Source of the DNA: an uncultured Gemmatimonadales bacterium
GTDB lineage: Bacteria; Gemmatimonadota; Gemmatimonadetes; Gemmatimonadales; GWC2-71-9
Direction: 5' to 3'
DNA: 64,000 bases
Assembly (NCBI GenBank): GCA_963711915.1
Contig: CAVQGA010000003.1
Span: 73,231 to 137,230 of the forward strand
Shown here: positions 1 to 15,691 of the stretch, piece after piece
Layout of the letters: every line of letters starts with the position of its first letter
Position numbering within the stretch: the first letter of the stretch is position 1
Notes under the pieces: model-generated
The model's input: the letters and a program-made list of their open reading frames with translations, nothing else
Told to the model about the DNA's origin: nothing
The model's database searches: none
Program-made: the position numbers and the translations under genes

Positions 1-619
1 GAGCCGGATCGGCTTCACGTTGCGCGCCGGAGCCGGCCGAATCCTGCCCTACGGCAACAGCATCCCGGCGGCGGGCGACGAGTCGCCGTTCGTGAGCCTG
101 CTTCGGTTACGCGACGTCACGTTCACGGCCGGCGGCAGCCGGGACGTCAGAGGGTGGGGCACGCTCCTGCTCGGTCCCAAGCTGCCCCAGGTCCAGCTCC
201 AGGCCAGCGGCGACACCACGGTGGCCGTCTCCGACAGGTACACGCCGGTCGGCGGCCTCGCACGGCTGGTCGGCAGCGTGGAGCTCCACTTCCCGATGCC
301 GGTGCTGAGCGAGGCATTCCAGCCGTATCTGTTCTATGACGCCGGCCGGATCTGGATCCCGGACTCGCGGTTCGCGCTCGACGCCGGGGAGCTGGATCAG
401 GACGGATACTACCAATCGGTCGGCGTGGGGATCGGCTACGCAACGGTCATCGGGGCGATCCAGGTCGCCTTGGGCTACAAGTTGAACCCGTCGGCCATCG
501 ACCTGAGGTCGCCGCAGGACGTGCTCGACGCGCTCGAGGCCGGGACGCCGATCGACGCGGCCCCCACGTCGGCGTCGCGCCGATTTCACCTGCACTTCTC
601 CATCGGCACCAGCTTCTGA
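1..619 (+). CDS. Omp85/BamA-TamA family outer-membrane protein, C-terminal beta-barrel part (5' end upstream of window)
   Basis: The frame is open from nt 2, with no stop before the listed TTG at 20. Translation carries Omp85 barrel motifs (GGSRDVRGW, FYDAGRIW, GVGIGY). It ends in the aromatic OMP signature ...HFSIGTSF*. Confidence 0.75.
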   Translation, partial: SRIGFTLRAGAGRILPYGNSIPAAGDESPFVSLLRLRDVTFTAGGSRDVRGWGTLLLGPKLPQVQLQASGDTTVAVSDRYTPVGGLARLVGSVELHFPMPVLSEAFQPYLFYDAGRIWIPDSRFALDAGELDQDGYYQSVGVGIGYATVIGAIQVALGYKLNPSAIDLRSPQDVLDALEAGTPIDAAPTSASRRFHLHFSIGTSF

Positions 620-673
620 AGGCGCGGTGACCCCCGCCACGGCACCTCCACCCCCCTCGCCCCACTCTGCAGC

Positions 674-1354
674 ATGTCACCGCCCCCCGCCCTCGGTCAC
701 CGCATCTTTCTGCTCTCCCCGGCGCACACCGGCGGCAAGCGCGCCACGCTCCTGCTGGGTGGGCGCGGCCGGTTTCCCCTGGCCCAGCGGCTGCAGGCAG
801 GCGACACGGTCACCCTGGGGGAGGCGTTCAGTTTTCTGAGCGGCCTCTACTTTCGCGGCAAGCTGACCTACGCCCGGCGCTTCGCGCACCCGCCTCCAGG
901 CGTCCTCGGCGTTCGGGTCATCACCAGCAATCGCGGCCTCCTCCCGGCGGACGCCGAGCTCACGCTGGACGAGCTGCGTGCTTTCGCGGACACCGAGATC
1001 CGATCCGATGAGCCGCGCTATCGCGACCCGCTGCAGCGGGACCTCGCGGCCATCGACAGCGCGGTGGTGCCGGGTGACGCGCCGCCCGAGCTCGTACTCC
1101 TGGGCAGCGTGGCGACCGGCAAGTACGTGGACGTGCTGACCGCGGCCGCGGGCTCACGGGTGCTGTTTCCGGCCGAGTTCGTGGGCCGGGGCGACATGAG
1201 CCGAGGCGCGCTCCTGCTCCGGGCAGCGCGTGAGGGCCGCGAGCTCGAGTGCAGGGCAGTCCTGACGACCGCGCGCCGCGGCCCGCGTCCGAGAAAGGCA
1301 TCCGATGGCGACGACACGCCCGCCGCGCTCCTCGCGGATACCGTCCGGGGTTGA
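674..1354 (+). CDS. conserved hypothetical protein, 226 aa, no signal peptide; family not recognised
   Basis: ATG-initiated ORF with protein-like composition (IFLLSPAHTGGKRATLLL ... LLGSVATGKYVDVL ... FVGRGDMSRGALLLR). Its last 50 nt overlap the LigD-Pol gene start on the same strand. Confidence 0.6.
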   Translation: MSPPPALGHRIFLLSPAHTGGKRATLLLGGRGRFPLAQRLQAGDTVTLGEAFSFLSGLYFRGKLTYARRFAHPPPGVLGVRVITSNRGLLPADAELTLDELRAFADTEIRSDEPRYRDPLQRDLAAIDSAVVPGDAPPELVLLGSVATGKYVDVLTAAAGSRVLFPAEFVGRGDMSRGALLLRAAREGRELECRAVLTTARRGPRPRKASDGDDTPAALLADTVRG

Positions 1355-2249
1355 CGACGCCGTCGTCCGCCTCGGACGACGAAGCGTCGCGCTGACCCAT
1401 CTGGACAAGACCTTCTGGCCCGAGCGGGGCTACACCAAGCGTGACCTGCTGCAGTACTACGCCGACGTGTCGGCCGTCCTCCTGCCGCACCTGCGCGACC
1501 GCGCGATGGTGATGAAGCGCTATCCGAACGGCATTCACGGCAAGTGCTTCTTCATGAAGCGGACACCGCCGCGGCACCCGGAATGGCTGGAGACTTGCAC
1601 CATCGCCCACAAGGCTGCGGGCCGAATCGCGTTTCCGATGGTCCAGGACCTCGCCTCGCTTCTCTGGGTGGTGAACCTGGGATGCATCGACCTGAATCCC
1701 TGGTATGCACGCTGCGACGACACCGGCCGGCCGGATGCCGTCAATTTCGATCTCGATCCGGGGCCGGGCGCGGGATTCGGGCGCGTGCGCGAGACCGCGC
1801 TCGTCGTGCGTGACGCGCTCGAGTCGCTCGGCATGCGCCCGCTGGTGAAGACGACCGGCTCGAGCGGCATGCACGTCTACGTGCCGATCGTCCGGGGCCC
1901 GCTGCAGAAGGCGGTCTGGGGGTTCGCCAAGCGGCTGGCGCAGGAGCTCGAGCGGCGGCATCCGAAGCTGATCACGGCGGAGTACCGGATCGCGAAGCGT
2001 CCTCGCGGGCGGGTGCTGGTCGACTACAACCAGAACGCGTGGGGACGGACGCTCGCGTCGATCTACTCGGTCCGGCCCACGCGCGAGGCGACGGTCTCGG
2101 CACCGGTCACGTGGCAGGAGGTCGAGCGGGGCGTCGAGATCGGCGACTTCCGGTTGGCGACGTTCCCAGCGCGGGTCCGCCGGCTCGGAGACCTCTGGCA
2201 GCCCCTGCTCGCCACCCGCGGCCGGTTCCGGCTGGAGCCACTGGTATGA
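1305..2249 (+). CDS. stand-alone LigD polymerase/primase (PolDom, AEP) domain protein
   Basis: Matches LigD Pol motifs: LTHLDKTFWPERGYTKRDLLQYYADV, KRYPNGIHGKCFFMKR, NFDLDPGPG, KTTGSSGMHVYVPI. The stop overlaps the next start (ATGA at 2246-2249). Confidence 0.9.
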   Translation: MATTRPPRSSRIPSGVDDAVVRLGRRSVALTHLDKTFWPERGYTKRDLLQYYADVSAVLLPHLRDRAMVMKRYPNGIHGKCFFMKRTPPRHPEWLETCTIAHKAAGRIAFPMVQDLASLLWVVNLGCIDLNPWYARCDDTGRPDAVNFDLDPGPGAGFGRVRETALVVRDALESLGMRPLVKTTGSSGMHVYVPIVRGPLQKAVWGFAKRLAQELERRHPKLITAEYRIAKRPRGRVLVDYNQNAWGRTLASIYSVRPTREATVSAPVTWQEVERGVEIGDFRLATFPARVRRLGDLWQPLLATRGRFRLEPLV

Positions 2250-3247
2250 GCCTGCCACTGCGGCTCTCCTACGCACCGATGGAGGCCGAGAGAGCGGCCG
2301 AGCTGCCGAGTGGCGCCGCGTGGCAGTACGAGCCCAAGTGGGACGGCTTCCGCGCGCTCGCGTTCCGGGACCACGAGGTGATCCATCTCCAGAGCAAGGC
2401 GGGCAAGCCGCTGGCCCGGTACTTCCCCGACGTGGTGGAGACGCTCGGGGCGCTGGAGTCTTTGCGGTTCGTGCTGGACGGCGAGATCGTCATTCCGGTG
2501 CACGGCCGGCTCTCGTTCGACGAGCTGCTGCTCAGGGTGCATCCCGCGGCGAGCCGGGTGCGTACGCTGGTGGAGGCCCACCGGGCACGCATGGTGGTGT
2601 TCGACCTGCTGGTGGATGACCGCGGCCGCTCGCTGGTGGATCTCCCGCTCGAGGTTCGCCGGGAGCGGCTCGAGGCATTCGCCAAGCGGTTCTTCCCGGC
2701 CGACGGTTCGATCCAGCTCTCGCGCGCCACGCGGCAGCTTCGGACCGCGCGGACCTGGCTGGCCCGCGGCGGGGACGGCGACCTCGACGGTGTGGTGGCG
2801 AAGCGGCTCGACCTGCCGTACCGTACCGGCGAGCGCGACGGGATGCTCAAGGTCAAGCGCCAGCGGACGGCGGACTGCGTCGTCGGGGGCTTTCGATATG
2901 CGTCCAAGGGTGGCGGCATCGGCTCGCTGCTCCTGGGATTGTTCGACCCCGAGGGCCGGCTCGACCACGTGGGCTTCTGCTCCAACCTGGGCGCGGAGTC
3001 CCGCCTCGGCCTGCGCGAGAAGGTCGAGCGCCTGCGCCGGCCGCCGGGATTCACCGGGCGGGCGCCCGGAGGGCCGAGCCGGTGGAGCACCGAGCGCTCG
3101 GCGCAGTGGGAGCCGCTCAGCCCGACGCTGGTCGTCGAGGTCGGGTACGACCACGTGTCCCACGGCAGGTTCCGCCACGGCACGAAGTTCCTGCGCTGGC
3201 GGCCGGACAAGGCCGCACGACAATGCACGCTGGAGCAGATCGCATGA
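2246..3247 (+). CDS. ATP-dependent DNA ligase, short LigC / LigD-ligase-domain type (333 aa)
   Basis: I place the start at the internal ATG at 2246 (MSLPLRLSY...). The upstream part of listed ORF 2039-3247 is Arg/Pro-rich junk. Ligase motifs are present: YEPKWDGFR (KxDG), VLDGEIV, LDGVVAKR, MLKVKRQRTADCVVGG. Confidence 0.9.
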   Translation: MSLPLRLSYAPMEAERAAELPSGAAWQYEPKWDGFRALAFRDHEVIHLQSKAGKPLARYFPDVVETLGALESLRFVLDGEIVIPVHGRLSFDELLLRVHPAASRVRTLVEAHRARMVVFDLLVDDRGRSLVDLPLEVRRERLEAFAKRFFPADGSIQLSRATRQLRTARTWLARGGDGDLDGVVAKRLDLPYRTGERDGMLKVKRQRTADCVVGGFRYASKGGGIGSLLLGLFDPEGRLDHVGFCSNLGAESRLGLREKVERLRRPPGFTGRAPGGPSRWSTERSAQWEPLSPTLVVEVGYDHVSHGRFRHGTKFLRWRPDKAARQCTLEQIA

Positions 3248-3903
3248 AGAAGACGGAGCGGACGAAGAAGACATCGGGATCGTCGGCGCGGCTGGTGGAG
3301 TACCGGCGGAAGCGGGACTTTGCCCGCACGGCCGAGCCCAGGGGCGGCCGTCGCAAGGCGGCGCGAAAGCTTCAATACGTGATTCAGAAGCACGCGGCGA
3401 GCCACCTGCATTTCGACCTCCGGCTGGAGCTGGACGGCGTCATGAAGAGCTGGGCGGTACCCAAGGGACCGAGCCTCGATCCTTCGGTCAAGCGGCTCGC
3501 GATGCAGGTGGAGGATCACCCGGTCGAATACAACACGTTCGAGGGCACGATTCCCAAGGGCGAATACGGCGGCGGTACGGTGATGGTGTGGGACCGGGGC
3601 ACCTACAGCTACGGCGGCGACGACGAGGGCGACCCCGTCGAGGCGCTCCGGCACGGCTACGAGAAAGGCGACTTCAAGGTCGAGCTCCACGGCAAGCGCC
3701 TGAAGGGCTCGTGGGTACTGGTGCGAACCCGCCGCGGCGACCCGAAGCGGGCCCAGTGGCTCCTCATCAAGCATCGCGACGAGGCGGCGGAGCCTGGGTC
3801 GGACGTGGTCGAGGAGTTCCAGACCTCCGCGGCGACAGGCCGGACGATGGACGAGATCGCGGCTGGCAGGAAGGCGCGTGCCCGACGAGGAGCGGCATCG
3901 TGA
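3244..3903 (+). CDS. stand-alone LigD 3'-phosphoesterase (PE) domain protein
   Basis: The start ATG at 3244 overlaps the ligase stop (ATGA). PE motifs are present: YRRKRDFARTAEP, HLHFDLRLELDGVMKSWAVPKGPS, VEDHPVEYNTFEGTIPKGEYGGGTVMVWDRG. Confidence 0.9.
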   Translation: MKKTERTKKTSGSSARLVEYRRKRDFARTAEPRGGRRKAARKLQYVIQKHAASHLHFDLRLELDGVMKSWAVPKGPSLDPSVKRLAMQVEDHPVEYNTFEGTIPKGEYGGGTVMVWDRGTYSYGGDDEGDPVEALRHGYEKGDFKVELHGKRLKGSWVLVRTRRGDPKRAQWLLIKHRDEAAEPGSDVVEEFQTSAATGRTMDEIAAGRKARARRGAAS

Positions 3904-4502
3904 GGCGGGCGCCCGTGCTCGGCCTCGTGCTCGTTACCGCGCTGGCCCCGGCGTGCGGCAGAGATCGCTCCGGCGGCGACGCCGTCGCTCGCGACGCGAG
4001 CGCTTCGGTCGACTCGACGAAGTTCGGCGACGACCGCGCCGCCCAGGGGGACACCGCACGGATCGCGCCCGACGTCATCCTGCTGGAGGGCCTGGTCGAC
4101 CAGTACGAACGTCTCGACGTGGTGATGGACGAGCTGGCCGGGCCCACGAGCGGAAGTCCCGTCCAGGGCCATGCATCGAGCGGAGATCGGCACGAGGATG
4201 CCGCCAAGGCCCGGCTGCTCGACCTGCTGCAGCGGGAATTCGGGGAGCGCTATCAGCCACGGACGCCCGCGAAGACGGCGCGCCTCACCGATTCGATCGG
4301 CCGTCTGCCGCACGACGCCGGCACCCATGCCCTGGACGCCCTCGTGCTGACCCACCACCGCCGGGTCGCCCGCTCGATTGCCGCCGGGCTCCCCTCGGTG
4401 CGGAACGCCCGGGTCCGGGCGGAGCTGGTCGACCTGTCCGAACGGCTCCGACAGGAGATCGAAAAGCTGAGCGCCCGGCGGCCGCCTAGCGGATCCGGAT
4501 GA
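3900..4502 (+). CDS. putative secreted/lipo-protein, helical, HH-containing (possibly DUF305/DUF4142-like four-helix bundle)
   Basis: Only the last ~200 codons of listed ORF 2616-4502 look coding. A GTG at 3900 overlaps the PE stop (GTGA). The N-terminus VRRAPVLGLVLVTALAPAC is signal-peptide-like with a weak lipobox. Confidence 0.55.
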   Translation: MRRAPVLGLVLVTALAPACGRDRSGGDAVARDASASVDSTKFGDDRAAQGDTARIAPDVILLEGLVDQYERLDVVMDELAGPTSGSPVQGHASSGDRHEDAAKARLLDLLQREFGERYQPRTPAKTARLTDSIGRLPHDAGTHALDALVLTHHRRVARSIAAGLPSVRNARVRAELVDLSERLRQEIEKLSARRPPSGSG

Positions 4503-6246
4503 GCTTTGCCTTCGAGGGCACGTCGTTGCCGTTGAGGATGAACAGCATGTACCAGCCCGGCGGCGCCAGGTTCCGGCTCGCCGGCGCCGTCACGGTGACG
4601 CCGCCCGTCGCCGGCTTGAAGGTGAGCCACATGAACCGCTGGGTGTAGTTGAAGGCGTGGGTGGCCGAGCCGATCGCGATCAGGCTCACCTTGCTCACCG
4701 TGGCAGCCGACGGGGTGGAGACCAGGAACGACGACCCGTACACAGCCGAGCTCGGGGCGCTGGAGATCGTCGGCCGCGTGCCCTTGAACAGATAGGGCGG
4801 GGAGTAGAACTCGGCGCTCTTCTCGTCCGGTGCCGCCGTGCCGTCGGCGAGCAGCGCGTTGCCGCTGCCGGCGTGGAGCACCCGTCCGTCGGGCAGCAGC
4901 AGAGTCGTCGAGTGGTACGTCCGGTTGACGGCATTGCTGGCCACCTGAGTCCAGCCGCCGGTGCCCGGATTCCAGATCTCGGCCACCCGCACGGCCAGGC
5001 TGGGCTCGTTGAAGCTGGTGCCTCGGCTTCCGCCGGTGACCAGAACTTCCCCCGTGGGCAGCATGGTGGCGTTGAGATGCCGGCGGGGGTAGGCCATCGG
5101 CTTCGCCCACTGCCACTTGGGAGACGCCTGGTTCAAGTCGATCGTCTCCGCCGTGGGTGTGGTGCGCCCGCCACCGGCGTACAAAATCTTGCCCGGCAGA
5201 TACATGACCGCCGCACCATAGTCCCGGGTGCCGTAGAGCCGCGTGGCGACGAACCCCCAGTTCCCCGTCCCCGAAGTGTTGAGGTACCGAGTGGTGCTCG
5301 CCTCCCCCGCGTAGAAGACCTTCCCGTTCGGCGCCACGAAGGTCCGCGGATAGTACGGCAGCGACTTGCTCGCGGTCGTCAGGCTCCGCCAGGAGGTGCC
5401 GTTCCACACCTCGGGGATCGTCGCGTCCGCCCCGTTCTGGTCGCGGCCGGCCATGACGACGATCTGGCCGTTGGGCAGCTCCGTGGCGGTCGGGTACCAC
5501 CGGCCGTACGCCATCGGCGGTGCGCTGCTCCACGCGCGGCTCGACGGAGTGTAGATGTTCCCGTCGGGCAGCCCGTGGTCGTCGCTGATGTGCCCGCCGG
5601 CCACGAACAGCCGGCCGTCCGGGAGAAAGGCGTGCCCCGAACAGAAGATCCAGCTCGGCAGCGGCTTGACCGTGAACGAGCCGGTGGCGGGATCGAACTC
5701 GTACGGATCGCCGAACTTGCCCCACGCCAGGACCTTGCCGGTAGACAGCAGGTGCATGTGCACTGCCACGAGCGGCCAGGGAACCGGCGCGCTCCACTGC
5801 CCCGCCGTACTGGTCGCAGCGATGGCGAACGAGGGGTTGCCGGTGATGGGAGCGCAGGCGGTCCGCTCGTTGTCCCGGACGGTCAGCAACTGGTCGCCGC
5901 GGTAGACCGCGAGCCGGCCCTCGTGCTGGACGGAGAGCTTCACTTCGCTGAAGGCCGGATCCCCGGCGGGCGCCGGCCGCAGGGCTTGCTCGCCCTGCTC
6001 GTCGGTGCCCTGGACCCGCCACGTCACGCGCACGCCGAACGGGTGCGCGTTGATCAGGACGAATCGGTTGCCGCAGACGTAGAGCGCCCGGATCGGGGCC
6101 GTGTCGTCGGACTGCGCCGCGGGCTCGCCTGCGACGGACCCCGGGGGCGCCGGTGGGCCCGCGTCCCGGTCGCACGCGGCCAGGAGAATGAGCGCCAAGC
6201 TGAGGAGCCCGCGGGGGATGCGGCGACAGCGGGTCGGTCGTGGCAT
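4486..6246 (-). CDS. galactose oxidase / glyoxal oxidase-like lipoprotein (kelch beta-propeller + C-terminal DUF1929/E-set)
   Basis: I place the start at the ATG at 6246 (MPRPTRCRRIPRGLLSLALILLAAC, lipobox LAAC). Kelch-like repeats are present (GKVLAWG, DGRLFVAGGH, NGQIVVMAGR, GEVLVTGG). The tail GWYMLFILNGNDVPSKAKLIRI is typical of this family. Confidence 0.8.
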   Translation of the reverse strand: MPRPTRCRRIPRGLLSLALILLAACDRDAGPPAPPGSVAGEPAAQSDDTAPIRALYVCGNRFVLINAHPFGVRVTWRVQGTDEQGEQALRPAPAGDPAFSEVKLSVQHEGRLAVYRGDQLLTVRDNERTACAPITGNPSFAIAATSTAGQWSAPVPWPLVAVHMHLLSTGKVLAWGKFGDPYEFDPATGSFTVKPLPSWIFCSGHAFLPDGRLFVAGGHISDDHGLPDGNIYTPSSRAWSSAPPMAYGRWYPTATELPNGQIVVMAGRDQNGADATIPEVWNGTSWRSLTTASKSLPYYPRTFVAPNGKVFYAGEASTTRYLNTSGTGNWGFVATRLYGTRDYGAAVMYLPGKILYAGGGRTTPTAETIDLNQASPKWQWAKPMAYPRRHLNATMLPTGEVLVTGGSRGTSFNEPSLAVRVAEIWNPGTGGWTQVASNAVNRTYHSTTLLLPDGRVLHAGSGNALLADGTAAPDEKSAEFYSPPYLFKGTRPTISSAPSSAVYGSSFLVSTPSAATVSKVSLIAIGSATHAFNYTQRFMWLTFKPATGGVTVTAPASRNLAPPGWYMLFILNGNDVPSKAKLIRIR

Positions 6247-6422
6247 GCCAGGCTCTTCGAGGGAATGAACTGCAGTATATCCCCCGTTCCGCCTACTGAT
6301 CGTGAGTTGACTCACCGTTTCCCCCCTCCCGTGTGAGGCCCGACACCGCCCCCGGGGCGGCGCATCGCCATATGGAGGCCGTCACGCGAACCGCCGCCAG
6401 GACACTCGACTCCGGAGGAACG

Positions 6423-7067
6423 ATGCCAGCGACAACCCGGGTGGGACTGCTGCTCCTGCTCGCCGCCTGTGGCGGCGGGCGCGATCGGGCGAGCACCACG
6501 GACACCACCGCCATGTCCTCCCCTGCGCCTGCGAGCCAGCCGGACACCCAGCCCGCCGCTGCCCCCGCCGACACCGCGATGGCCCCGGCCCCCAAGATCC
6601 AGCCCGACACGACCGCCCGGAAAAGCTCGAGCGTCAAGCCGAGCGCGCGGCCGGCGCAGGATACCTCGAAAGCCGCGGCACAGGACACCTCGAAGGCCGC
6701 GGCCAAGGCCGCCGCGAAGCCCGCAGCCAAGCCCGCGGCCCCGGCGGCAGCCGCCGCGGGCGGCGGCCCGACCCCGCAGCAGATCGCCCTGGGCGACAGC
6801 ATCTTTCACGGGCAAGTCGCCGGCGGCACCTGCACGGCCTGCCATGGCCAGGACGCCAAGGGCACCGCCGTGGCCCCCGACCTGACGGACCAGCAGTGGA
6901 TCAACGGGGATGGCAGCTACAACTTCATCGTGCACACGGTGACGACCGGTGTGCCGCAGCCCAAGCAACACCCGGCGCCGATGCCCCCCAAGGGCGGCGC
7001 AACGCTAAGCGACGACCAGGTCAAGGCAGTCGCGGCCTACGTCTTCTCGCTGAGTCACAAGAGCTGA
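6423..7067 (+). CDS. lipoprotein c-type cytochrome (class I) with long Ala/Pro/Lys-rich linker
   Basis: Start at ATG 6423 (MPATTRVGLLLLLAACGGG, lipobox). Haem motif CTACHG is present. The distal Met region reads PAPMPPKG...QVKAVAAYVFSL. Confidence 0.85.
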   Translation: MPATTRVGLLLLLAACGGGRDRASTTDTTAMSSPAPASQPDTQPAAAPADTAMAPAPKIQPDTTARKSSSVKPSARPAQDTSKAAAQDTSKAAAKAAAKPAAKPAAPAAAAAGGGPTPQQIALGDSIFHGQVAGGTCTACHGQDAKGTAVAPDLTDQQWINGDGSYNFIVHTVTTGVPQPKQHPAPMPPKGGATLSDDQVKAVAAYVFSLSHKS

Positions 7068-9586: not shown

Positions 9587-10853
9587 ATGAACATCGCGAC
9601 GGCGCCGGACGGCGCCAGCGCCGTCGTCCGCCTCACCGGGCGGCTGGACGGTGAGGCGGCCCTCCAGCTGGCCGACGTGCTCGAGCGCCTCCTCCGCGAC
9701 GGCCGCCGGTCCGTGCTGCTCGACATGAGCGGGGTGACCTACCTCAGCTCCCCCGGTACCCTGGCGTTGCAGCAGGCGCACCAGGATTACCTGGCCGCGC
9801 GGGGCGAGCTCCGGGTGACCTCGCCCTCGCGGGCGACGACCGAGGCCCTCACCGCGGCGGACCTGCTGCCCCGCCTCCTGGGCCAGTCCCCATCCGCCGG
9901 AGACGCCGCCGACGCCGGCCCGTCGCTGGAGCACACGCGAGACGACTGGCGCCTGCCTGCCACGCTCGCCGCACGGGGTAGCTACGAGGTCTCCTCCCGC
10001 GATCCGGCGGCCGAGCTCTACTGCCGCGTGCATGGACGCGCCGAGGCCGCGGTGCGCAGCTGGATCGACTCCAGCGACTACCGGTCGTTCGAGTTTCCCG
10101 AGGCGTCGTTCGGTCTCGGCATCGGCGCGCTCGGCACGGACCGGGTGCAGGCCGCCCCGCGGCTCGGCGAGGTCCTCGCGGCCGGCGGCGCCGTCGCCCA
10201 CCTGCCGACCGAGGGTGGCCAGGTGCCGGACTTCGACGTCGGGCTCGGCGGTCGGGTCCCGACGGCCCAACTGGTCTCCGGGCTCGTCTGCGGCGGCGGC
10301 TTCTCGCTGCTCAAGCGGTTCTCGAGCCCCTCGGAAGATCGAGCCGATTGCGCTCTCGGAGCTCGCCGGCGCCAGCCTGGAAGGCGTGAGCAGCCAGACC
10401 GCGGGTCTGGTGATGGTGGCCGAGACCACCGGCCTGGTGGGCGCCTGGCTCCGCCGGAGCCCGGGCATCGTGCTCTCCAGCATGTATCTCGACGTGCAGG
10501 GGGTGCGCGCGTGGCTCGGCACCACGCCGCAGCCGATCCACCAGGGCACGACCGTGCTGCTGGCCGGTGTCGTCTCCCGACGCCCGGACCCGCTGCTGGC
10601 GCCACATCTCCGTCCGCTCGCGGCGGGTTCCGAGCTCGTGGGCCATCTGCATGCGGTGGTGTTCACGTACCGGCCGGTCCCGCAGCGCACCGTGGTGCTC
10701 CGCTCGCTCGTCACCCGCTTGTTCGCCCAGCAGCGCGTCCGCGGCCTCCTCCACCTGCTCGGCGACGACCGCGGCGCCGCCGGCGCCGGGCAGAGCGCGT
10801 TTCGCCGCGGCCTGTGCTGGAGCGGGCCGATCACGCGCGTGAGCGCGGCGTGA
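9587..10853 (+). CDS. STAS (anti-sigma-antagonist-like) domain fused to an unassigned ~300-aa region; reading frame broken by an apparent 1-nt insertion near 10327-10330
   Basis: The N-terminus VVRLTGRLDGEAALQLADVLERLL..VLLDMSGVTYLSSPGTLAL is STAS-like. The frame of 9587 turns into Arg/Pro junk after ~10330. From there the frame of listed ORF 10032-10853 becomes protein-like (KIEPIALSELAGASLEGV...) and ends at TGA 10851-10853. Confidence 0.6.
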
Positions 10854-11788
10854 ACCTGCTCGTCGGCGCCCTCTCCATGGGCTTCCTGCTCTCGCTCCTC
10901 ACGCTGGGCGTGTTCATCACGTACCGGGTGATGGGGCGGCTCGACCTGACGACCGACGGCTCCTTCGGGCTCGGCGGCGCGGTCGCGGCGGCGCTGGTGG
11001 GGACCGGGGTGCATCCGATCGTGGCGACCGTCGCCGCCGCCGCCGCCGGGTGGCTGGCCGGCGCCACCACCGGGCTGATCTACGTCGTCTTCGGGATCGA
11101 CACGCTGCTGGCCGGCATCCTCGTCACCACCGCGCTCTACACCGTGCAGCTCTGGATCATGGGCGGCGGCGACCGGTCCCTCGGGTCGGCCAACACCCTG
11201 CCCGACGTCGCCGAGCGCGTGTGGCACGCCCTGCGCCTGCCGGAGACGATCGAGCTGTTCGAAACGACGGTGCACGCCTCACTGCTGTCGTCGCTGGTGG
11301 TGTTCGTGGTCTTCGTGCTGTTCAGCATCTGGGTGCTCGCGCGGTTTCTGCGCACCGATCTCGGTCTCGCCATGCGAGCCGCCGGGGGCAACGCGCAGGC
11401 GGCCCGCGCGCTCGGACTCGACACCGGCCTCATGGTGACACTGAGCCTGGTGCTCGCCAACGGCCTGGTGGCGCTGGCGGGCGCGCTGTTCGCGCAGTAT
11501 CAGGGCTTCTCGAACGTGTCGATGGGGATGGGCATGATCGTGACCGGGCTCGCCTGCCTGGTGCTTGGCGAGGGGCTGCTGGGGCGCCGAAGCCTCCGGC
11601 GGCAGATCCTCGGCACGCTCACCGGGACCGTCGTCTTCCGCCTGCTGGTCGCGGTCGCGCTGGTGGCCGGACTGCCGTCCGACGCCCTCAAGCTCTCGAC
11701 GGCGGTCTTCGTGCTCGGCGCGCTGGGCGTGCCCGCGATCATCGGGCGGATCCGGCGACGGGCGGCACGGGCGGGAGACGCCGCATGA
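10850..11788 (+). CDS. ABC transporter permease (COG4120-type, branched-chain/BMP-like permease fold)
   Basis: A GTG at 10850 overlaps the preceding stop (GTGA). The product is multi-TM (VNLLVGALSMGFLLSLLTLGVFITYRVMGRLDLTTDGSFGLGGAV...). It corresponds to the last 313 codons of listed ORF 9587-11788. Confidence 0.85.
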   Translation: MNLLVGALSMGFLLSLLTLGVFITYRVMGRLDLTTDGSFGLGGAVAAALVGTGVHPIVATVAAAAAGWLAGATTGLIYVVFGIDTLLAGILVTTALYTVQLWIMGGGDRSLGSANTLPDVAERVWHALRLPETIELFETTVHASLLSSLVVFVVFVLFSIWVLARFLRTDLGLAMRAAGGNAQAARALGLDTGLMVTLSLVLANGLVALAGALFAQYQGFSNVSMGMGMIVTGLACLVLGEGLLGRRSLRRQILGTLTGTVVFRLLVAVALVAGLPSDALKLSTAVFVLGALGVPAIIGRIRRRAARAGDAA

Positions 11789-12612
11789 GCGAGCCGATCC
11801 TCCAGCTCGACAATCTCCACGTCACCTTCGCGGCCGGCACGCCCAACGAGCAGCGGGCGTTGCAGGGCGTGGACCTCACGATGGAGGCACGGGGCTTCGT
11901 CGTGGTCCTCGGCAGCAACGGCTCGGGGAAATCCACCCTGCTCAACGCCATCGCGGGCTCGCTGCCGCTCGACCGGGGCACGGTGCGCATCGCGGGGCGG
12001 GACGTGACCCACTGGCCCGAGTCGCGCCACGCGTCGCTGGTCGGCCGCGTGTTCCAGAACCCGATGTCGGGCAGCATCCCGGACCTGACGATCGCGGAGA
12101 ATCTGGCGGTGGCGAGTCGGCGCGGCCGGCGGCACGGCGTCCTCCTGAGCGCGCTCGGCCGGACCCGGCGGCGCGAGCTGGCGGACCGGGTGCGCGAGCT
12201 CGGGCTCGGCCTCGAGGACCGCCTGGACAGCCCGGTCGGCGCGCTCTCGGGCGGTCAGCGCCAGGCGCTCACGATGCTCATGGCGACGCTCGTCCGCCCC
12301 GAGCTGCTCCTGCTCGACGAGCACACGTCGGCGCTCGACCCGCGCAGCACCGAGCAGGTCGTGCAGCTGACCGAAGCGATCGTCCGTCGGGAGGGGCTCA
12401 CCACGCTGATGGTGACCCACTCGATGCAACAGGCCGTCGCGATGGGAGACCGGGTCGTGCTGATGCACCAGGGGCGGATCGTGGAGAACATCACCGGCGC
12501 GCGCAAGCGCCGGCTCCGGGTGGAGGATCTGCTGGACACCTTCGACCGGCTGCGCACCAGCGACCTGGTGGACCAGTCATCGGCGGAGATGCTGCGGCGG
12601 CTGTACATCTGA
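11785..12612 (+). CDS. ABC transporter ATP-binding protein (COG1101-type)
   Basis: An ATG at 11785 overlaps the permease stop (ATGA). Walker A GSNGSGKST, signature LSGGQRQAL and Walker B LLLLDEHTSALD are all present. Confidence 0.9.
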   Translation: MSEPILQLDNLHVTFAAGTPNEQRALQGVDLTMEARGFVVVLGSNGSGKSTLLNAIAGSLPLDRGTVRIAGRDVTHWPESRHASLVGRVFQNPMSGSIPDLTIAENLAVASRRGRRHGVLLSALGRTRRRELADRVRELGLGLEDRLDSPVGALSGGQRQALTMLMATLVRPELLLLDEHTSALDPRSTEQVVQLTEAIVRREGLTTLMVTHSMQQAVAMGDRVVLMHQGRIVENITGARKRRLRVEDLLDTFDRLRTSDLVDQSSAEMLRRLYI

Positions 12613-12661
12613 TGGGCGGCGTGGTAGCGTAGACCTTCACTCCCACGAATCCGGAACGACC

Positions 12662-13210
12662 ATGCACGATCCGCTCACACGGCGGCAGTTCGTCGGTACC
12701 CTGGCGGCGAGCGTGGCGGCCACCTGGGTGGCCGGGCCATGGAGCCCCGAATTCGCCACCGCGGGACGCGTGCTCGCCGCGTCGCAGCTGCGCGAGCTCG
12801 AGGCCATCACGGCGCTGATCCTTCCCACCGACGATACGCCCGGCGCCCGGGAGGCGCGCGTCGTGGACTTCATCGACCGGAGCCTGGCGTCGTTCGCCGC
12901 GGATCAGCGGCCGCTCTTCGATGCCGGGCTGGGCAGTCTCAATGCCCGGGTCGCGGAGCGGCATCCCGGCACCGCGAGCTTCGCCGATCTCGGCGCGGCG
13001 GACGCCACCGCCCTGCTGGCCGAACTCGAGCGCGAACAGTCCGAGTTCTTCGAGACGGTCCGGGTCGCCGCCATCACCGGATTTCTGGCGAACCCGGAGT
13101 ACGGCGGCAACGCCGGCAAGGTCGGCTGGCACCTGATCGGGTTCGACGACCGCTTCGTGTGGTCCGCGCCGTTCGGCTGGTACGACGCCGACGCCTCGCA
13201 CGATCGGTAG
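12662..13210 (+). CDS. gluconate 2-dehydrogenase subunit 3 family protein (Tat-exported small subunit of GMC-type dehydrogenases)
   Basis: Twin-arginine signal TRRQFVGTLAAS. Family motifs LILPTDDTPGAREARVVDFIDRSL and FLANPEYGGN are present. Confidence 0.8.
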   Translation: MHDPLTRRQFVGTLAASVAATWVAGPWSPEFATAGRVLAASQLRELEAITALILPTDDTPGAREARVVDFIDRSLASFAADQRPLFDAGLGSLNARVAERHPGTASFADLGAADATALLAELEREQSEFFETVRVAAITGFLANPEYGGNAGKVGWHLIGFDDRFVWSAPFGWYDADASHDR

Positions 13211-14939: not shown

Positions 14940-15691
14940 TCCCCGCGGTGGCGCGGCTGTGGATCGGCACCTCGGGTTACGTCTATCGCCACTGGCGCGG
15001 GGGCGTGTTCTATCCGGCCGGTCTCCGGACCGCGGACGAGCTCGCTTGGTACGCCACCCGCTTTCGCACCGTCGAGCTGAACAACCCGTTCTACCGGGTG
15101 CCGACCCGCGAGACGTTCACCCGGTGGCGGGACAGCGTGCCCGAGGGGTTTGTCTTCGCGGTGAAGGTCAACCGGGCGATCACCCATTTCCGGCGGCTCC
15201 GCCACGCGGACGAGCCGATGGGCACGTTCCTCGGCCTCGCGACCATCCTCGGCTCAGGGCTCGGCCCACTCCTGGTACAGCTCCCGCCTGACCTCCCCCT
15301 CGATCTGGCGCTGCTCGAGAAGTTCCTCGTGTCCCTGCCGGCGGCGCACCGTTGGGTCGTCGAGTTCCGGCACCCGAGCTGGCAGGTGCCCGAAGCGTAC
15401 GACGCGCTCGGCCGGCGAGCGGTCGCACTCTGCATCCCGGTGGGTGGGCGGGTGACGCCGGACCTGGTCACGACGGCGGCGTTCACGTATGTGAGGATGC
15501 ATGCCGGCGCGGGCCTCGGCGGGGCCTTCGACGACGAGGCGCTTCGGGCGTGGGCGGGCCGGCTCCGGGCGGTGAACCGGTCCGGGAAGGACGTCTACGT
15601 CTATTTCAACAACGACCGGCACGGCCATGCCCCGCGCGACGCGGCGAGGCTCCTGGACCTGATGGAAGGCGGATTGAAACGGGGCGGATGA
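14936..15691 (+). CDS. DUF72 (YecE-like) family protein
   Basis: Conserved DUF72 N-terminus LWIGTSGYVYRHWRGGVFYP and FRTVELNNPFYR. The start is a GTG at 14936 or 14948. The upstream part of listed ORF 14462-15691 is junk. Confidence 0.85.
   Translation: MIPAVARLWIGTSGYVYRHWRGGVFYPAGLRTADELAWYATRFRTVELNNPFYRVPTRETFTRWRDSVPEGFVFAVKVNRAITHFRRLRHADEPMGTFLGLATILGSGLGPLLVQLPPDLPLDLALLEKFLVSLPAAHRWVVEFRHPSWQVPEAYDALGRRAVALCIPVGGRVTPDLVTTAAFTYVRMHAGAGLGGAFDDEALRAWAGRLRAVNRSGKDVYVYFNNDRHGHAPRDAARLLDLMEGGLKRGG

Follow-up and report, generated by a model that had tools for sequence, protein, structure and literature searches.

The subject of this text is a gene in a stretch of 64,000 nucleotides of DNA from an uncultured Gemmatimonadales bacterium (GenBank assembly GCA_963711915.1, contig CAVQGA010000003.1, positions 73,231 to 137,230 of the forward strand). 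This whole stretch is called the window below. The gene lies at 674..1354 on the forward strand and encodes a basic alpha/beta protein of 226 amino acids, here named X226, which appears to be a divergent member of the DUF6884/YaaA superfamily. It is the first gene of an operon of stand-alone DNA repair modules, its homologues adjoin such modules in other lineages, and the same domain also occurs fused to a kinase of the polynucleotide kinase type. Judged by this sequence context, X226 points to an undescribed repair factor. No paper was found that describes the X226 family or its linkage and fusions.

The reading favoured here, which we hold to be reasonably probable, is that X226, being basic, binds to lesions or strand breaks in DNA and probably also acts on them, in a form of gap and nick repair that is independent of Ku.

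The gene and its operon

X226 is a real, protein-coding gene, since thousands of homologues exist. Its reading frame begins with an ATG and stops with the TGA at 1352-1354. The GC content by codon position (0.77/0.56/0.86) resembles that of neighbouring genes with Pfam domains, and is unlike that of the overlapping antisense reading frames. A preliminary description of this DNA, made from the letters alone, had reported an open reading frame of 226 amino acids here, and the ATG frame indeed holds all four peptide strings that it quoted. The same description had the last 50 nucleotides of the gene overlapping a polymerase gene. This overlap is real, because the ATG at 1305 is the only possible start of the polymerase gene; no other start codon lies between 1305 and the conserved N-terminal motif of the polymerase.

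Three genes follow X226 on the forward strand. The first encodes a stand-alone LigD-type primase-polymerase (Prim-Pol, or Pol for short) at 1305..2249 (PF21686 at 5e-87, TIGR02778). The second, at 2246..3247, encodes a stand-alone LigC-type ATP-dependent DNA ligase (Lig; NF006078/PRK08224 at 417 bits with a cut-off of 296, PF01068, PF04679). The third, at 3244..3903, is for a stand-alone protein with the LigD 3'-phosphoesterase (PE) domain (PF13298 at 3e-45, TIGR02777 at 220 bits). The Pol-Lig and Lig-PE junctions are both ATGA overlaps, and the latter reads gcATGAag at 3244-3247.

The ligase fails the model of the LigD ligase domain while passing the NCBIfam equivalog NF006078. For the polymerase, the nearest structures in the PDB are Prim-PolC of Mycobacterium smegmatis (5OP0/6SA0, 4e-54), with the PolDom of M. 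tuberculosis LigD at 8e-46; it seems somewhat nearer to Prim-PolC than to the LigD polymerase domain. Given the overlap of consecutive gene boundaries and the types of ligase and polymerase, X226, Prim-Pol, ligase and PE form an operon with translational coupling, whose stand-alone modules are of the LigC/Prim-PolC kind. A scan of window positions 1-4600 for promoter and terminator consensus sequences found none. Upstream of X226 lies the end of an Omp85-family gene.

Gene neighbourhood across lineages

Linkage was counted by tblastn of the Pol, ligase and PE proteins of the window against 80 loci from GTDB genomes. These are the best-scoring loci, whose X226 is 51-70% identical to the query; for more distant members of the family, the sampling was limited to a representative list. 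Gene calls on the loci come from an ad hoc GC3-based caller. This caller missed X226 in 14 loci, which is why the linkage counts are taken from tblastn. In 76 loci there is enough sequence to judge what lies downstream.

In 52 of these 76 loci, X226 has a Pol, LigC-type ligase or PE gene no more than 3.5 kb downstream and in the same orientation. Three additional loci have such a gene immediately upstream or in convergent orientation. The linkage is present in Gemmatimonadota, Verrucomicrobiota, Acidobacteriota and Methylomirabilota, and the flanking genes differ per lineage. Genomes hold only a few copies of these repair genes, so chance adjacency is negligible.

Which modules are present varies. 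Verrucomicrobiota have X226-Lig (19 loci), and Acidobacteriota have X226-Pol-Lig (6 loci) or X226-Pol (2 loci). Gemmatimonadales come with X226-PE (7), X226-Pol (6), X226-Pol-PE (5), X226-Pol-Lig-PE as in the window (3), X226-Pol-Lig (2) and X226-Lig (1).

Some loci hold other repair genes. In locus L050, X226 is followed by a DUF72 gene and then by a glycosylase of the uracil-DNA glycosylase (UDG) superfamily. Locus L073 has a UDG gene downstream, and in L063 an endonuclease of the ExoIII type comes after Pol. The remaining recurrent neighbours (a response regulator, TonB/ExbBD, PurD, CBS and HxlR) were considered as general partners and set aside, as each of them recurs within one lineage only.

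Ku and end joining

Ku was searched for by tblastn with an M. tuberculosis Ku sequence. With this query, no Ku was found in the 64 kb window, and a Ku-like gene lies within 8 kb of X226 in 1 of 84 loci. This gene, at 10038-10883 of locus L076, is about 1.4 kb downstream of X226 on the same strand, and is a putative ku by its tblastn match (7e-44). X226 itself has no Ku core domain (PF02735) in Pfam and NCBIfam scans. Among the Foldseek PDB matches listed for the X226 model, the vWA domain of Ku80 comes at rank 29 with an E-value of 1.9, which is chance level. Bacterial Ku and X226 both adjoin ligD-type genes and have a presumed DNA-binding role. They have nothing else in common, neither sequence nor fold, and one locus holds both.

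The preliminary description had put X226 in the place of ku next to ligD, and had made it a candidate accessory factor for end joining. This is supported in part. The linkage to ligD-type genes, conserved across four phyla, is much stronger than the letters alone could show, and favours a repair accessory factor. The half that concerns Ku and non-homologous end joining is not supported: the ligase is LigC-type, the polymerase is nearest to Prim-PolC, Ku is scarce, and the other linked genes are those for UDG, an ExoIII-like enzyme and a PNKP-like kinase. For these reasons, the pattern of linked genes fits excision, nick and gap repair better than Ku-dependent joining of double-strand breaks.

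A closer parallel is found in mycobacteria. Their LigC/Prim-PolC complex fills short gaps, seals nicks and interacts with base excision repair (BER) enzymes, and it is co-operonic with FPG in some species (PMC5663958). The ligase and polymerase of the window operon are of the same type, and BER genes are linked in some X226 loci, as FPG is in some mycobacteria. Unlike the mycobacterial complex, the window operon also holds a stand-alone PE gene, and operons with X226 occur in Gemmatimonadota, Verrucomicrobiota and Acidobacteriota. An X226-like component was not found in the portions of the mycobacterial description consulted (PMC5663958); X226 was not searched for in mycobacterial genomes.

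Kinase fusions

Among the longer family members, four independent representatives have X226 joined to a P-loop kinase (Pfam AAA_33). In P0134 and P0143 the kinase precedes X226 at the N-terminus, and in P0153 and P0157 it comes at the C-terminus. Among solved structures it is nearest to the kinase domain of mammalian PNKP (9e-13), to T4 Pnk and to Pnkp of Clostridium thermocellum; among NCBIfam models, TIGR01663 ('polynucleotide phosphatase/kinase') matches it best. Starting from P0143, a search gives at least 115 full-length fusion clusters at 90% identity, and the fusions are called on several independent contigs. No PNK-like kinase was found in the window or in the 84 loci.

Because these fusions recur without conserved neighbours, X226 plus a polynucleotide 5'-kinase would seem to be a self-contained unit, along the logic of bifunctional end-healing enzymes. 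PNKP, T4 Pnkp and bacterial Pnkp likewise combine such a kinase with a second end-processing domain, and the kinase half of the X226 fusions is PNKP-like. The partner domain in these enzymes is a HAD phosphatase or a metallophosphoesterase, whereas X226 is neither and lacks an acid or metal motif. Where a PNKP-type HAD phosphatase has its DxDxT nucleophile motif, X226 has S-P-A following strand 1, with no conserved Asp there. Also unlike PNKP and Pnkp, the X226 gene of the window is itself unfused.

Other long family members appear to be fused to GNAT, MurJ or ligase. These are probable read-through, fragment or frameshift calls, and they were not used. On the JGI contig of P0143, the fusion gene (139-1257) is followed, with a 4-nucleotide overlap, by a DUF763 gene for 422 amino acids (1254-2522). 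This neighbour is missing from the other fusion loci examined.

Family size and conservation

A word-indexed search gave 7,999 significant matches among 8,000 candidates scored, and its named matches are all 'hypothetical protein', without a Pfam domain. At E<=1e-3, an exhaustive search of 50%-identity representatives puts at least 1,463 clusters in the family. A scan of one genome per species finds at least 599 GTDB species with a homologue. They belong, among others, to Gemmatimonadales, Verrucomicrobiota (such as Chthoniobacterales and Udaeobacter), Acidobacteriota, Tepidisphaeraceae, Methylomirabilota/Rokubacteria, Dormibacterota and Limnocylindria. A tblastn search of 72,556 plasmid records gave no homologue at E<=1.

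The X226 protein of the window has no Pfam match even at E<=5, and no NCBIfam match. PDB sequence searches, with the single protein and with a profile, gave chance matches only. At the level of these three kinds of search, it is correct that the protein belongs to no named family, as the preliminary description had it. The family is un-modelled: neither Pfam (2025 copy) nor NCBIfam (June 2026) covers it.

An alignment of 78 family members (A1) has 12 invariant positions: S15, P16, A17, S56, L58, Y59, F60, R61, K63, Y66, G88 and G144. A further 26 are near-invariant, including R23, S145, K150, Y151, R177 and a GRGDMSRG loop. The conserved core is basic, with a median isoelectric point of 10.0 and a median net charge of +7. 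No Cys or His is conserved, and the sole acidic motif position is D174 (83%).

Predicted fold and remote relatives

The fold of X226 is predicted with confidence (AlphaFold2 model from A1, pLDDT 92.9, pTM 0.87). The model is a compact, soluble, parallel alpha/beta sandwich in which strands alternate with helices, and it has no long hydrophobic helix. A long helix at 48-70 carries the invariant SxLYFRGKxxY motif.

Compared to the PDB, Foldseek gives a best E-value of 0.13, with weak matches to vWA, SRP-GTPase, HAD and methyltransferase domains, which are generic alpha/beta folds. The good Foldseek matches are to predicted viral structures, not solved ones. At the top is a protein from Caulobacter phage Kronos (E 3.4e-4, TM 0.48/0.56, root mean square deviation 4.0 over 186 columns), followed by one from Mycobacterium phage Mendokysei (E 7.2e-4), both of them DUF6884, then a phage protein named YaaA (E 1e-3, TMt 0.60), and gp8 of Burkholderia phage KS14 (E 3.2e-3), which is itself DUF6884. 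These four all have a Foldseek probability of 0.99-1.00. The fifth match, an unnamed entry, is at 0.047, and from the sixth onward E-values exceed 0.1. DUF6884 is the best fold match, at probability 1.00 and TM 0.45-0.56.

At the profile level, the DUF6884 Pfam model is weakly matched by 4 of the 78 members of A1 (best E 0.024), and no other Pfam family is matched by more than one of them. The window protein does not reach the gathering score of DUF6884 (PF21818). A guess that the weak matchers carry 'SALYF' was wrong, in 0 of 8 tested. A second alignment (A3) holds twelve phage proteins gathered starting from KS14 gp8, all of them DUF6884 by Pfam, to E 5.5e-41. The hhalign comparison of A1 with A3 has an E-value of 2.9e-5, a probability of 73.7% and a score of 38.4. 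As controls, a reversed alignment scored 11.9, and 30 block-shuffled ones scored at most 26.1, with a median of 16. The accepted remote pair of YaaA and DUF6884 gets an E-value of 2.4e-6 in the same test.

The core of this alignment puts L58-Y59 of X226 on the invariant L-Y of DUF6884, and V-I-T-x-x-R-G88-L-x-x-x-D on I-L-S-A-x-H-G-L-V-x-x-D. Relaxed settings extend it in order, with LLGS..KY on L.G..Y and then GRGDMSRG on GIGYQR. In the region of the LSAxxG motif described in PMC11701544, G88 is invariant and T84 is 86% conserved, and the Ser-Ala is not kept in X226.

DUF6884, for example B. subtilis YfjM and many proteins of actinophages and Caulobacter phages, is like X226 a small basic alpha/beta protein. 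Under relaxed settings or by eye, the motifs of the two families can be lined up in order: LY on the helix that comes after the first strand, an I-[LT]-S/x...G-[LF]-[LIV]..D hairpin, L-[LV]-G...Y, and G-x-G...R..L. The hairpin reads 'LSAxxG' in DUF6884 versus 'ITxxRG' in X226. Unlike DUF6884, X226 has its own invariant S-x-L-Y-F-R-G-K-x-x-Y helix and GRGDMSRG loop, and it is some 50-70 residues longer than the DUF6884 domain.

YaaA (DUF328/UPF0246) resembles X226 in having an N-terminal strand followed by S-P-A, and an RGxMSR-like loop. It differs in being longer (258 amino acids) and in having the SPAK lysine that is missing in X226. The YaaA genes examined adjoin peroxidase genes, not ligase or polymerase genes. 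Direct membership of YaaA was considered, as SPA, LSGLY, L[AG]S..Y and RGxMSR can be lined up by eye in this order, but profile tests were not significant. The 'LSGLY' match conflicts with the hairpin register that DUF6884 supports, so direct membership was dropped and the link via DUF6884 was kept.

X226 is therefore placed as a separate family inside the DUF6884/YaaA superfamily, a relationship that is remote but supported. It is a member of neither Pfam family, because the direct comparison with YaaA is not significant and the CxxxK motif of DUF6884 is not kept. The preliminary description could not place the protein in a family; AlphaFold, Foldseek and hhalign now make it a remote relative of DUF6884/YaaA, not of Ku.

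The superfamily is associated with DNA. E. coli YaaA (5CAJ) had a new fold when it was solved, has a strongly basic depression, and co-purifies with duplex DNA (PMC4834066). Its loss raises mutation rates under peroxide stress, and it protects against peroxide-linked DNA damage (PMC4834066). According to the Pfam curators, DUF6884 is distantly related to YaaA and a basic cleft is common to both; in an AlphaFold3 model, B. subtilis YfjM flips a nucleotide into a conserved pocket (PMC11701544). YfjM was also enriched on DNA baits with an abasic site or an RNA base (PMC10220248, PMC11701544).

Two phage cases add DNA-related context for the superfamily. In Myxococcus phage Mx4 (L115, 586-1548), an N-terminal DUF6884 domain (8.9e-37) is joined to a DndB-like domain (5e-15), of a type tied to the sulfur modification of DNA. 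The other case is that of Rosebushvirus mycobacteriophages, where a gene for a RuvC-like resolvase adjoins that for DUF6884.

Proposed role and alternatives

In the proposed mechanism, X226 would bind damaged DNA, be it abasic or ribonucleotide sites, nicks, short gaps, or the termini of these. Binding would be through the basic surface and a conserved Ser/Tyr/Lys/Arg pocket without a metal-binding acidic cluster. Once bound, X226 would either mark the site for other enzymes or chemically clean it. Trimming, filling and sealing could next be done by PE, Pol and ligase, each encoded by its own gene. Such a system would work without Ku, on excision intermediates or single-strand breaks. Elsewhere, where this domain is fused to a PNKP-like 5'-kinase, the two would make a self-contained end-healing protein.

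We infer the recognition of lesions or termini, and with it the recruitment of the other enzymes or the preparation of the site for them, from the basic domain, the conserved pocket, the DNA-associated superfamily, the links to repair genes and the fusion to a 5'-kinase. DNA binding, lesion specificity and any catalysis are likewise inferred. The degree and kind of residue conservation make catalysis somewhat more likely than pure scaffolding. The favoured guess would be metal-independent chemistry at the lesion or 5' terminus, such as that of a lysine-based lyase, because the conserved residues are Ser, Tyr, Lys and Arg without a metal-binding cluster. An apurinic/apyrimidinic (AP) or 5'-deoxyribose phosphate (5'-dRP) lyase that uses K63 or K150 is one speculative example; such a lyase would provide a step for which the gene sets examined have no enzyme. 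The more specific claim, that X226 is a new metal-independent enzyme of strand-break or base-excision repair, for example a lysine-dependent AP/5'-dRP lyase or a base-flipping lesion processor, is put forward tentatively, as less likely than not.

Several points weigh against the proposed role. All functional statements on X226 come from context, conservation and remote homology. About a third of the loci (24 of 76) have no downstream repair gene, and the kinase fusions stand alone without conserved neighbours. The relation to DUF6884 is remote: the hhalign probability is 74%, and the confident core spans 51 columns. The CxxxK motif (C10 and K14, invariant in A3) is not kept; at its position X226 has the invariant S15-P16-A17, then G21 and R23, with no Cys and no conserved Lys at +4. 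Compared directly to YaaA (PF03883), hhalign gives E-values of 0.15 with one sequence and 0.11 with a 15-sequence alignment, over short segments, while hmmsearch in both directions gives nothing significant and there is no PF03883 match in Pfam. The 50 Foldseek PDB matches listed do not include 5CAJ, the solved structure of YaaA. The function of DUF6884/YaaA is itself putative. Finally, the conserved residues of X226 could serve the binding of a ligand or partner, not catalysis.

Four other explanations have been weighed. X226 could be a non-catalytic adaptor that tethers Pol, ligase and PE, and the fused kinase where there is one, into a single complex on DNA. It would then replace the covalent fusion found in multidomain LigD, like a small XRCC1-like scaffold. 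Its basic nature, the translational coupling at the gene boundaries, and its being the common denominator beside any of Pol, Lig and PE, in every combination, where these modules stand alone, are all in keeping with this. An adaptor is less easily squared with 12 invariant positions and 26 near-invariant ones in proteins that are 40-50% identical in pairs, or with a cluster of polar residues (S15, S56, Y59, R61, K63, Y66, K150, Y151, R177) more typical of an active site or ligand pocket. The kinase fusions also occur without Pol, Lig or PE nearby. We regard the adaptor as rather unlikely. A Ku substitute, which would bind double-strand ends and promote synapsis for non-homologous end joining, is conceivable given that Ku is missing from the window and from 83 of 84 loci. 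X226 is basic, and it lies upstream of ligD-type genes, a frequent position of ku. However, it has no similarity to Ku in sequence or fold, and it co-occurs with Ku in one locus. Its partners are of the LigC/Prim-PolC type, which is experimentally tied to excision and gap repair (PMC5663958), and the linked UDG, ExoIII-like enzyme and PNKP-like kinase act on single-strand lesions. A Ku substitute is unlikely.

The kinase fusions suggest another possibility, in which X226 is a phosphatase or phosphodiesterase domain that heals 3' ends, the counterpart of the phosphatase half of PNKP/Pnkp. A polynucleotide kinase domain usually has a 3'-phosphatase domain as its partner, of a fold that varies, and X226 fills that place in abundant fusions and in both domain orders. 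The motifs do not fit: DxDxT, metallophosphoesterase, HD, 2H, Cys-X5-Arg and catalytic His motifs are all missing from X226, its one acidic motif position is D174, and Cys and His are unconserved. In many cases X226 is moreover the direct neighbour of PE, so that 3'-phosphoesterase activity is already provided for, and a new 3'-phosphatase is distinctly unlikely. It is also conceivable that only regulation is shared, and that the function of X226 has nothing to do with DNA, for example in the metabolism of nucleotides or small molecules, with a Rossmann-like fold. The Foldseek PDB matches listed, all weak with E-values above 0.1, do include nucleotide-binding and other alpha/beta domains, and the loci without repair neighbours might be cited too. 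This is very improbable, given that the linkage holds over four phyla amid otherwise unrelated neighbours, that fusion to a polynucleotide kinase is common, and that the best relatives by fold and by profile are DNA-associated families.

Stand-alone LigC, Prim-Pol and PE modules are widespread, and their accessory factors are poorly known outside mycobacteria. The X226 family adds a conserved fourth component in dominant soil phyla, often translationally coupled or kinase-fused. It is a testable candidate for the step in which Ku-independent repair recognises lesions or cleans ends, and it deserves its own Pfam/NCBIfam model. With this linkage, the DUF6884/YaaA superfamily also gains its first strong functional context from genomes. 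If X226 does prove to be a metal-independent repair enzyme, X226 with stand-alone Prim-Pol, LigC and PE, or with a fused 5'-kinase, would be a compact Ku-independent pathway common in soil bacteria. The homology would in that case reveal the long-sought molecular activity of this superfamily.

Other observations

In Gemmatimonadales, several further genes recur around X226. A response-regulator receiver gene (single-domain, about 156 amino acids) lies immediately upstream of X226 on the same strand in L023 (1384-1851) and in 12 other loci, such as L022, L026 and L044, with 76-97% identity among the 13. It could control the operon in that clade; the window has the Omp85 gene there instead. A conserved protein of about 116-137 amino acids without a Pfam match comes after X226 in L013 (8678-9025), L020 (8684-9043), L058 and L055, and after Pol in L024 (9571-9981). 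In L012 its copy is about 3.5 kb away on the opposite strand. This protein may be a further lineage-specific operon member.

Another small protein, which matches DUF6496 weakly (E-values of 6e-5 to 2e-4, scoring at the gathering threshold or slightly under it), is encoded between X226 or Pol and PE in several Gemmatimonadales loci, namely L015 (8668-9075), L027, L032 (1931-2344), L017 and L038.

An ENA contig (L001) has an identical X226 protein. It matches the window across X226, Pol and ligase, and diverges after about 91 residues of PE. Its PE gene, at 12571-12855, is called at only 94 amino acids, versus 3244-3903 in the window. Either the two assemblies of one organism differ here, or there is a chimeric join.

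The window also holds a DUF72 (YecE-like) gene at 15008-15664 on the forward strand (PF01904 at 3e-66), about 11 kb downstream of the operon. With the DUF72 gene between X226 and UDG in L050, this recurrence could be a loose association or chance.

Convergent with the repair operon, at 4486-6315 on the reverse strand, is a gene for a protein of 608 amino acids, in which Glyoxal_oxid_N and Kelch repeats are combined with an E-set domain like that of galactose oxidase. It looks like an enzyme of the glyoxal/galactose-oxidase type. Long spurious reading frames overlap this gene on both strands, as is typical of a genome with 70% GC. It is followed at 6333-7067, on the forward strand, by a gene for a c-type cytochrome of 244 amino acids, with a Cytochrome_CBB3/Cytochrom_C domain at 166-240. 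Ahead of this domain is a long low-complexity linker, rich in Ala, Pro and Lys, with a repeated 'AQDTSKAAA'.

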